From NCBI GenBank assembly GCA_031267915.1, contig JAIRYE010000013.1, positions 45,439-109,438 on the forward strand: DNA of 64,000 nt, in the 5' to 3' direction. Position numbers: made by a program. Source of the stretch: Puniceicoccales bacterium. GTDB lineage: Bacteria > Verrucomicrobiota > Verrucomicrobiia > Opitutales > JAIRKQ01. This document shows positions 58,301 to 61,300 of this stretch, piece after piece (positions within the stretch are counted from its first letter, which is position 1; every line of letters begins with the position of its first letter).

Positions 58301-61300
58301 GAAAGGGTATTATGTCTAGCATGTCCTAGTTTAAAAAAACACAGGGGCCAACTTTAAATGGAAATTTATCTGGCATGCAAGATTTTTTTTGCCATGTGAT
58401 TTGGAATTTCATCTACTTCGCTGCGTTTTATCTTCCGCACGGCAAAATCTGCACTGAACGATTTCGGCGCCTTGGATTGCGCAAATTCACTCGTGAAAAT
58501 TAATGCCCCGACTACTCGGCTTCCGCCTGTTTAGCTTGGAATTTATTTGGCCAAGCTTCTACCAAACTTCTAATCTGCGCATTTTGAATCGTAAGCTTCA
58601 ATATGGCGTCGCCATCGACGATAAAGGCTGAGAAAAGCAAGTGGAGATTGGCATCGGGGAAACAGTCCCCCAGTACCCCATTGGCAATAGCCGCCAGGTT
58701 GATGTCTCCAACTCCAATGATGCCATTTTCTGCGGATATGCGCATTGTTTTCAGGCCGCTCCTATGGAGATCTATAAAATCATGCAAATCCTGCACCTCA
58801 TTGGTCCCACAAGCCATCAAAAACACCACGCCGTCGATTGCGCAGAAAACCTTCTTTGCAGCCGCTTCCGGGAATTTTATTTCATAGACTACGAATCCAT
58901 CGTAATCATCTATTTTCTGCGCCGTCCCCATCCGCAACTGCGCAGCAACTCCATCGAAAGCCTCCTGAAAAGTTGTTCCATCGGCGGGATCGTCCTTTAT
59001 CCCCATGCAAAAATATCCAATATTTGACTTTGCCCAAGCAAAGTAATGATCCCCAGTTGAGTAAGACAGCAGCAGTTTGGTCAGGTCATAAACCTCGTCG
59101 CGGGACTCAACCAGCTGTCTCAGGAGCTTGCACGTACCGGCTTTTACTAGGCACACATCGTCTTTTGTGTCGCACGAATCTGATTCGGCGCAGCAACATT
59201 CTTCGGATTGTTCGCAGCAGCACTTGCATGCGCATTCTCTCTTGTCCACACTATCTTTTTCGCTGCACGAATCTGATTCGGTGCAGCAACACTTTTCGGA
59301 TTGTTCGCAGCAGCACCTGCATGCGCCCTCACTCTTGTCAAAAATATTTTTCAATCTATTTAACTGCCACAGTATGCTTTGGCTCGCGAGGTCCATCTCT
59401 TCTTCAGTCATATTTTGGGAGATATTGATCGCAGCCGCAATATTCTGCGCAGGAATAATGTTCCAAAAAATAGGCCTTGCCTTTACTGTCTGCGCAAAAA
59501 TCTGCTTATACTTACTGTCATTTTTCAAGCAAACGCGTTCGGAAATTTGTAAATTTTTCCTGGAAATTCGCAGCGAAAAAAACAAAGATTCCGCATCTTT
59601 CAAATTCTCTTTCCCCATCAATACATCGGGCGGTAATTCATCTGAATTCAGCTTATCCAATTCCTGGATGCACATCTCGGGACTTAGGAAGCAAACAATA
59701 TCCTCATCCAGGCTTTTGCCAATATCTGCTATTATCTGCTGCACCACCTCGTCGTCAGCCAGTAGATATTCGTCTTGGGGGGCCGCCAGAAGAGTCCAGT
59801 CTCCAACTCGCTTTTGCTGGAATTCGGGCAGCCATTTCTCCTTTAGCAAACTACCCTCCTGTACCTGCAACACGATAATAGCTCCGCAGAACGGCATCTG
59901 ATCATTTTCCGTAGGCTCTTTCGAACAAATGGTATAGATGCCCCAATTGGCCTTATCTGAAAGCTTCACTTCAGGCCCCAGAATGATACTTAGAACGCTT
60001 GAGACATATTTTTGGGCGAGATGCCCTCCCAGAGCTTCCTCGGCAGCTGCTCTTATGCGCCCCTCCATCTTTTTAACAGCTTGTCCCTTCAAAGCCGCCC
60101 CGATGAACCGACTTTCCTCTCCGGATAAGGCCGCCCCGGCACACATTGTGAGCATGAAAAAACACAACACTCTGGAAAAAAACTTCATGGATAATCCATA
60201 ATAAATGCGTGATCCGAAGGCAAGTTATTTTTACAATTCTTTCCCGAAATCCTCATGCAGCTTGCTACTCTTGAGCCTCCACTTCGCATGGTTTTCTCAG
60301 CAGCAACTCCGGATTGTGGATAAAGGCATGCTCTCCCAATTCCTGTCTAATCACCTGCTCGGCGGCATCAATTGCTAGGGATCTGTGAATAAGACAGAAA
60401 AATCCACTGCCGCTGCCGGTCAGCATGGCATTTGCTCCAATCTCTTTCAGGCGCCGGCACAGTGACAATAAATTTTTATGGCGCAGAAAGAACATATCCG
60501 AAAAAGTATTAAACAGAGGCAGTTCCTTTCGCCCAGCTACCACTGCTTCCCGGAGGCATGTGAAGCGGTGGCGCGCCTCATCTTGTCCCACGTACAGGTG
60601 TTGAAAATTTTCTCTCAGGGTTGCGTAGGCTACTTTTGTGCTGACGCCAAAGCCTGGCTTGAAAATTAGTAGGCTGTAATTTTGCAGAGCTGCTACCATT
60701 TGTCCGTCCATTGGGGCCAAAACATTTCCGATGCCAGTCGCCATGCTTGGCCTGCCATCCAGAAAAAAAGGACAATCAGCTCCGATGCCATGGCACAACT
60801 TCATCAGGTCATCGAAAGACAAAATATTTCCACTGAGCCAATTTACTCCCCTCAGCGCCGCCGCCGCATTGCTGCTACCACCTCCAAATCCAGCCTCCAC
60901 CGGAATATTTTTTTCCAGGGCAACGGAGAAGTATTTTTTCTGTCCGATCCTTTGCCTAAAAGCATTCAGCGCCATCGCAATCGAATTATTTTTTTCATCG
61001 GCAAAACTCGAACTGCAGGAAATTTCATCCGGCGCACACCTCCTTTCGCGTATTTGCAAATTATCTCCCCAAGCCACTGCGCAATTGGCGGAAAAGACAT
61101 CGTGATGGCCGTCTAATCGCCGTCCCGTAGTGGCAAAAAACAAATTAATCTTCGCCGGTGAAAAAACTTTTGCCAAAATTCCTACTTTTTTCACATTGTT
61201 GCCTATATTTTGAACGGATTATGAATCTACGAATTGGCATTGTCGGAGCAACTGGAATCGTTGGCATGGAGCTCCTTTCCCTACTTGAGGAACGCAAAAT

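Follow-up and report, generated by a model that had tools for sequence, protein, structure and literature searches.

A tandemly duplicated cysteine-rich linker in a lineage-specific, probably exported protein of Puniceicoccales

The element described here is a Cys-rich linker encoded by a gene, designated X, on the minus strand of a 64,000-nt stretch of contig JAIRYE010000013.1 from a Puniceicoccales bacterium (the whole stretch is referred to below as the window). X specifies a 558-aa protein that is probably exported, and between its two domains 18 Cys residues are concentrated within 57 positions (residues 290–346) of a segment built around two complete 31-codon units arranged head to tail. 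By analogy with known proteins, we tentatively favor the view that this linker is a metallothionein-like thiolate metal-binding site kept reduced by an anoxic habitat, a reading to which we give somewhat less than an even chance. The patch is classified here as a Cys-rich module that can expand by duplication and is unusually placed, joining the two domains of a lineage-specific, probably exported bacterial protein; the feature is clean and unusual, and its interest is moderate, with function approached by analogy.

With respect to composition, the 62-aa tandem contains 17 Cys (27%), and the count for residues 290–346 rises to 19 when C353 is included. The remaining 497 residues of X contain 13 Cys (2.6%), and the long open reading frames (ORFs) elsewhere in the window average 1.66%. 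At this background, the binomial tail probability of at least 18 Cys per 57 residues is ~1.5e-18, or ~3e-14 corrected for all windows. The preliminary description, made from the sequence alone, had singled out this segment for a Cys density far above that of the rest of the protein, and the counts bear this out (18/57 versus 13/497 residues). The linker is acidic and rich in Ser and Cys; specifically, Asp and Glu account for 18 of the 62 residues at positions 284–345, and Phe, Trp, Tyr and His are absent from this segment. The same 62 residues harbor four CCC triplets, which are the only CCC runs found within long ORFs of the window in six-frame translation. The 21-nt core encoding CCCEQSE likewise occurs at only two sites in the window, both of them in the tandem, and at none in shuffled sequences.

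A direct-repeat search returned one family, consisting of two adjoining 93-nt copies that are 85% identical and spaced by exactly 93 nt. The repeat had previously been reported as two 62-bp copies lying 93 bp apart; this spacing was right, and the 62-bp cores are only part of the full 93-nt units. The proposal of an in-frame duplication also stands, as 93 nt correspond to 31 codons and the reading frame is kept. The repeat was not listed by Tandem Repeats Finder with default scoring. Each unit (sequences in Table 1) follows the consensus D-K-x-E-x-A-C-x-CCC-EQSE-x-CCC-x-ESDS-C-x-x-K-D-x-V. An 8-residue sub-period is also visible within each 31-residue unit (CCC-EQSEK / CCC-TESDS / C; 59154–59339, minus strand), and this sub-period suggests an older, smaller duplication beneath the 93-nt one.

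There are 14 mismatches between the two copies over 93 positions, and no identical in-register run exceeds 22 nt. All eight Cys columns of unit 1 are kept in unit 2, with identical codons that include the single TGT, and the ninth Cys of unit 2 arose from a Gly-to-Cys change, whereas the amino acid is changed in 8 of the 23 non-Cys codons. Nei–Gojobori estimates between the copies are ~0.23 for synonymous divergence (dS) and ~0.16 for nonsynonymous divergence (dN), giving a dN/dS ratio of ~0.7. These values point to spacer residues under weak constraint and cysteines that are kept, a contrast that is only marginal (Fisher p = 0.076 for conservation of Cys versus non-Cys columns, over 31 codons). 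With a nucleotide divergence of 15% between the copies and dS ~0.23, the duplication is not very recent, and the term "recent" used in the preliminary description applies only in a relative sense. The divergence also makes it very unlikely that the duplication is an artifact of assembly. The sequence does come from a metagenome-assembled genome (MAG), and no second assembly of the strain was found, an exact-sequence contig look-up for the NCBI entry of X (P0001) having produced no match. Nonetheless, k-mer assemblers would not be confused by copies with 14 mismatches and at most 22 consecutive identical bases in register, the frame is kept and all differences are clean substitutions, so that we attach almost no weight to this explanation.

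Database searches place X in a family of seven unannotated proteins, all from Puniceicoccales MAGs (Verrucomicrobiota). Five true relatives (E 1.5e-56 to 1e-5, 25–33% identity), each a hypothetical protein of a Puniceicoccales MAG, were identified by phmmer among 1.84 billion representatives, and a further match, P0005, was removed as a spurious repeat protein. A scan of genome contigs revealed three X-family loci, again all in Puniceicoccales MAGs, and added one extra member. The family was recovered only by the exhaustive phmmer search; word-indexed protein searches with X returned X itself and, once, also P0007, probably because low-complexity words swamped the candidates. No relative above 33% identity was present in any collection searched, and two metagenome-contig scans contained no relatives. 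The three members with a traced origin come from Gsp477_bin153, Gsp477_bin174 and Cd354_bin103, names that point to lower-termite gut metagenomes; for Gsp477, the termite is Glyptotermes (PMC11707648).

Full-length members of the family share a signal-like N-terminus, an N-domain of ~260 aa, a central Cys cluster and a C-domain of ~210 aa, and X displays each of these in full-length alignments, including the core motifs of the C-domain (HSTGD, EDYGGF.IYE and IDLY), which is the best-conserved region of the family. In the six-member alignment, C346 is invariant, and the central segments contain 19, 8, 6, 7, 15 and 13 Cys in 86, 55, 56, 30, 54 and 60 residues, respectively. The densest 40-residue Cys window falls at a relative position of 0.53–0.59 in all seven proteins. 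Neither the sequence of the linker nor its Cys positions can be aligned between members, its length is hypervariable and C-x-x-C-like spacings appear in the patches of some; no DNA tandem repeat was detected in the Cys patch of any other member. Taken together, these comparisons indicate that the Cys-rich junction is ancestral to the family and has been maintained while its exact sequence was free to vary. Because all seven members cluster Cys at the same interdomain position, only the doubling is lineage-specific, and the "inserted module" of the preliminary description is wrong, the patch being a resident junction that was enlarged. That description had also allowed that homologues might show the module to be a conserved single-copy feature of a known domain family; its position is indeed kept and it is single-copy elsewhere, but the family is an unannotated one. 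Two tandem X paralogues are found directly upstream of mraY in GCA_031270385.1 (locus L002, 2884–4569 and 4836–6512), both with strong Cys patches (13 and 15 Cys). A heme CxxCH motif occurs in one paralogue only, by chance, and was rejected.

The same comparisons bear on whether the patch needs a function at all. It could be a tolerated low-complexity spacer, in which slippage of TGC triplets and a chance 93-bp duplication left Cys residues with no role beyond that of a flexible tether. The CCC runs are coded by TGCTGCTGC or TGTTGCTGC, both slippage-prone, and the lack of alignable linker sequence, the dN/dS of ~0.7 and the marginal excess of Cys conservation between the copies are compatible with such an origin. 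We nevertheless consider it improbable, as Cys enrichment recurs at the same junction in 7/7 members despite flanking-domain identities of only 20–33%, and neutral drift would erase a bias toward Cys because this residue has two codons and is normally rare (1.66%).

Export of X is probable from its N-terminus, which combines a basic n-region (MKFFSR), a hydrophobic core (VLCFFMLTMCAGAAL) and a likely cleavage site near AGA-A. The signal peptide noted in the preliminary description is supported by these elements, recognized by eye together with small residues at −3/−1, and by an equivalent N-terminal segment that aligns in six family members. X is 100% identical to NCBI LBI81_02630 (P0001, 547 aa), which is annotated 11 residues shorter. 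The annotated start corresponds to Met12, leaving out 60156–60188 (minus strand) and with it the basic n-region; the upstream ATG at 60188, which gives 558 aa, is preferred because the homologue alignment supports it. A lipoprotein reading, with LTMC as the lipobox, was rejected since the homologues have no conserved Cys at the corresponding site. With regard to secretion machinery, a secretin gene adjoins ftsW in the window (51635–53578, plus strand), and a gene for type II secretion protein F is located near the X homologue of locus L003 (4920–6140, minus strand). In view of these genes, the genomes may export proteins beyond the periplasm.

In structural terms, the Cys linker is predicted to be disordered between two folded domains. 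The AlphaFold2 model of X, built from a six-sequence alignment, has a mean predicted local distance difference test score (pLDDT) of 70.7 and a predicted template-modeling score (pTM) of 0.69; the flanking α/β domains are modeled with moderate confidence, mostly at pLDDT 70–90, whereas residues 288–350 fall below 50. Modeled alone, the N-domain scores slightly better (pLDDT 77, pTM 0.73). A helix of ~30 residues at the end of the N-domain (262–291) leads into the patch, and helices 343–361 and 363–375 border it on the other side. No sign of an internal duplication relating the N- and C-domains was found with hhalign, and Foldseek gave no viral structural relatives. Sequence and profile searches against Pfam, NCBIfam and PDB with X, six family members and the patch alone identified no relatives; for the six members, the best Pfam value was E = 0.057, to unrelated families, and no match was credible.

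In Foldseek searches of the PDB, Treponema pallidum TP0453 ranked first both for the whole model (E = 2.4e-4, TM 0.35) and for the N-domain alone (E = 1.5e-2, TM 0.33–0.35). This protein is an outer-membrane-associated lipoprotein that has been proposed as a lipid carrier (PMC5421087). It is the best fold match for the N-domain and the only one to recur, and both X and TP0453 would be α/β/α envelope proteins; unlike the lipoprotein TP0453, X has no lipobox. The match is weak, with TM values of 0.33–0.37 (0.5 or higher marks the fold level), root-mean-square deviations of 7–12 Å and 6–11% identity, and we regard it as a lead that is too faint to indicate homology.

In terms of function, metal binding is rated likeliest because the junction combines disorder, acidity, a lack of aromatics, 27% Cys, a Cys richness selected for throughout the family and enlargement by duplication, which together make up the operational signature of a metallothionein-type thiolate cluster region. 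Metallothionein-type sequences are unstructured until metal is bound, tolerate changes that spare Cys and grow by internal tandem duplication. An operational composition for the class (~25–33% Cys, CxC/CC/CxxC motifs, no aromatics) is matched by the patch, with 27% Cys and CxC, CC and CCC motifs. In this lineage, duplication of one 31-codon unit (CxCCC-x5-CCC-x5-C) raised the linker to 17–19 Cys, and every Cys has since been kept while the residues between them drifted. Under the metal-binding model, the exported linker would stay reduced in the anoxic gut and, in the periplasm or on the cell surface, could hold several ions of soft metals such as Cu(I), Zn(II) or Cd(II). It might thereby buffer or scavenge metal, or alternatively become ordered and so set how the two domains are placed relative to each other. 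Metal capacity would have been approximately doubled by the duplication, by the same route through which eukaryotic metallothioneins have grown.

Known proteins offer partial parallels for such a site. The closest in formal terms are the subfamily 7a Cd-metallothioneins of Tetrahymena, in which CCC/CC submodules (C3X6C2X6) have been multiplied into modules (PMC1808422). The X patch resembles these in its CCC runs 5–6 residues apart, its short submodules in tandem, its ~30% Cys and its few or no aromatics. Unlike the Tetrahymena proteins, which are free-standing, cytosolic and Lys-rich, the X unit is acidic and located within an exported 558-aa bacterial protein; its pattern, CxC3-x5-C3-x5-C, does not reproduce the Tetrahymena motifs C3X6C2X6 and, at the C-terminus of each module, CXCXXCXCCK, and there is no sequence homology between the two. 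Among bacterial proteins, periplasmic CopG holds a Cu4 cluster through CxCC and matters anaerobically, and copper stores of the Csp1 type are exported (PMC7558416). X shares with these an exported location and clustered Cys, and its units open with CxCCC, giving CRCC and CKCC strings. CopG has a thioredoxin-like fold and adds two Met ligands to its CxCC motif, whereas the X segment is predicted to be disordered and has no Pfam match; Csp1 is a rigid four-helix bundle, whereas the Cys of X reside in a predicted disordered linker with no copper genes nearby.

A number of observations weigh against metal binding. Classical metallothioneins are small and cytosolic rather than linkers in 60-kDa exported proteins, and the operational description of a small, free-standing (<10 kDa) and usually cytosolic protein does not fit an internal linker of a 558-aa chain. 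The patch of X matches no curated metallothionein family, no metallothionein, copper or iron–sulfur family in Pfam and no PDB sequence, and neither it nor the patches of two homologues are similar to any Pfam family at E values up to 10. Three family members have only 6–8 patch Cys, an enrichment that is not individually significant; such numbers could form one small metal cluster and would suit a few disulfides equally well. In addition, no metal-related gene is present in the conserved neighborhood of X in either of the two synteny classes described below, and the very fast evolution of the whole of X would be less usual for a protein of metal homeostasis than for one at the surface or in contact with a host.

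Ligation of iron–sulfur clusters or another redox cofactor would be a different use for dense Cys in an anaerobe, and the CxxC-like spacings of some members would be in keeping with it. This alternative is highly unlikely, considering that the family has no conserved iron–sulfur spacing and no alignable Cys positions, that the segment, which a Sec-type signal peptide would direct out of the cytoplasm, is not predicted to fold, and that no iron–sulfur domain of Pfam was matched.

X usually lies in one conserved genomic setting. In the window, the minus-strand order is ispE, X, mraY, murD, a gene for a four-LysM protein and ftsW. The entire block recurs at locus L005, is kept from X to ftsW at L002, and at L001 is cut off by the end of the contig after asd, ispE and X. 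Counterparts of the LysM protein are found at L002 (9453–10550) and L005 (12133–13269), with 44–47% identity between genomes. A second synteny class is represented by L003 (6363–10568) and L004 (393–4484), where X is situated between a divergently oriented class-V aminotransferase gene and cmk; the X members of these two loci are closely related to each other. The aminotransferase is cysteine-desulfurase-like, and a sulfatase-family protein follows cmk. No redox gene is conserved beside X, and scans for promoters and terminators around X yielded hits at chance level. Between genomes, X is 21–30% identical, compared with 58–74% for ispE, mraY, murD, ftsW and asd (53575–61194; L001, L002 and L005). 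X is thus one of the genes that evolve fastest in this region, a behavior commonly seen in secreted or surface proteins.

This setting is relevant to the main rival of metal binding, in which the linker is a disulfide cross-linking hinge whose inter-chain or inter-protein bonds oligomerize X or tie it into an envelope lattice, the duplication having lengthened and strengthened the hinge. A hinge would suit the position of the patch, precisely where two folded domains meet and flanked by long helices in the AlphaFold2 model (262–291 and 343–375). Cys counts differ from member to member and are often odd, a pattern that fits inter-chain better than fixed intra-chain pairing. In four genomes, X immediately precedes the cell-wall genes mraY, murD, the LysM gene and ftsW, and its fast evolution suits a surface protein. 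The organism also belongs to the Planctomycetes–Verrucomicrobia–Chlamydiae (PVC) superphylum, in which OmcA and OmcB of Chlamydia and the YTV proteins of planctomycetes are envelope proteins with presumed or established disulfide cross-links. Like these, X is exported and Cys-rich, and its gene adjoins cell-wall genes; unlike them, it concentrates its Cys in one compact patch, whereas theirs are spread through folded domains. The hinge of human IgG3 provides a further analogy, as a flexible Cys-rich interdomain segment enlarged by tandem duplication, though that hinge is eukaryotic, Pro-rich and joined by defined inter-chain disulfides, unlike the X linker.

Several considerations make a cross-linking hinge doubtful, if still a realistic possibility. 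The geometry of vicinal CCC triplets is ill suited to ordered disulfides, and the habitat is anoxic. The 64-kb window shows no Dsb-type oxidoreductase, which is weak evidence from a fraction of the genome. X is not related in sequence to OmcA, OmcB or other Cys-rich envelope families, and Pfam searches with six members did not assign them to the OmcA/OmcB families. Furthermore, peptidoglycan synthesis genes are present, so that the cell has no need of a protein lattice in place of a wall. The chlamydial link put forward in the preliminary description is accordingly only an analogy within the PVC superphylum.

Fast evolution of X would also be in keeping with a possible role outside the bacterium, as an effector delivered to a protist host whose palmitoyl-transferases would S-acylate the Cys string for membrane anchoring. 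Cys strings are S-acylated for this purpose in the linker of SNAP-25 and in cysteine-string protein, and X shares with SNAP-25 a Cys-rich linker between two domains. Secretin and type II secretion F genes are present in genomes of the X family, and termite-gut Verrucomicrobia include kin of Candidatus Nucleococcus, endosymbionts of gut flagellates (PMC8204192). We judge delivery of this kind very unlikely: endosymbiont status would be an assumption for the source MAG, a Sec signal peptide plus a secretin gives no route into the host cytosol, and the acidic Glu/Asp/Ser context of the patch is unlike that of S-acylation sites, which are hydrophobic or basic.

Returning to the metal-binding model, its confirmation would make X one of few large exported proteins of bacteria to incorporate a cluster of the metallothionein type, and would mean that bacteria enlarge such modules by tandem duplication, as do ciliates, snails and tunicates. 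Were the linker instead to cross-link, the Cys-rich envelope theme of the PVC superphylum would extend to Verrucomicrobia that make peptidoglycan. As a fast-evolving, lineage-specific and probably exported protein, X is a candidate for a role at the interface of termite-gut Puniceicoccales with their surroundings, possibly including protist hosts. A more ambitious proposal, and something of a long shot, is that X represents a new class of envelope protein in protist- or termite-associated Verrucomicrobia with an expandable Cys linker as its working part. That part might be a soft-metal thiolate sponge in the periplasm or at the surface in an anoxic, sulfide-prone gut, or a redox-switchable cross-linker tied to the adjacent cell-wall genes as a verrucomicrobial counterpart of the chlamydial complex, with capacity tuned by tandem and gene duplication. 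The practical gain is modest, since the organisms are uncultured and only seven members are known.

Table 1. Positions in the window of gene X, its parts and the neighboring genes
Feature	Position	Strand	Details and basis
Gene X	58512–60188	−	558-aa exported protein (probable), unannotated family; ORF call and homologues
Signal peptide of X, ~residues 1–23	60120–60188	−	MKFFSRVLCFFMLTMCAGAALSG; by eye and homologue alignment
N-terminal α/β domain of X, residues 26–283	59340–60113	−	AlphaFold2 models
Tandem unit 1, residues 284–314	59247–59339	−	DKSEGACRCCCEQSEKCCCTESDSCSEKDSV; 8 Cys, CxC3-x5-C3-x5-C; repeat search and translation
Tandem unit 2, residues 315–345	59154–59246	−	DKRECACKCCCEQSEECCCAESDSCDTKDDV; 9 Cys; repeat search and translation
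Trailing C346 and C353, start of first C-domain helix	59130–59153	−	Sequence, alignment and AlphaFold2
C-terminal α/β domain of X, residues 354–558	58515–59129	−	Alignment and AlphaFold2
ispE (GHMP kinase), upstream of X	60265–61194	−	Syntenic with X in four genomes
mraY, downstream of X	57210–58322	−	Conserved cell-wall block
murD, downstream of X	55892–57232	−	Conserved cell-wall block
Protein with four LysM repeats, between murD and ftsW	54722–55864	−	Same arrangement in three genomes

Outside the syntenic block, a 1024-aa ORF upstream of ispE at locus L005 (3532–6606, plus strand) contains DVAGDGNCWFYSLG, a string similar on visual inspection to the catalytic Cys motif of OTU-type deubiquitinases. 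An OTU-protease reading of this ORF, which would have hinted at a eukaryote-directed effector, was rejected, as no Pfam match was obtained at E values up to 0.01. The only RNA gene in the window according to Rfam and ARAGORN is a tRNA-Leu(CAG) (63310–63394, minus strand). Finally, a 255-aa ORF at 62284–63051 (minus strand) has an N-terminal signal-like sequence, a C-terminal Phe and a sub-threshold match to a Helicobacter outer-membrane protein family, and its product may be a small β-barrel outer-membrane protein.

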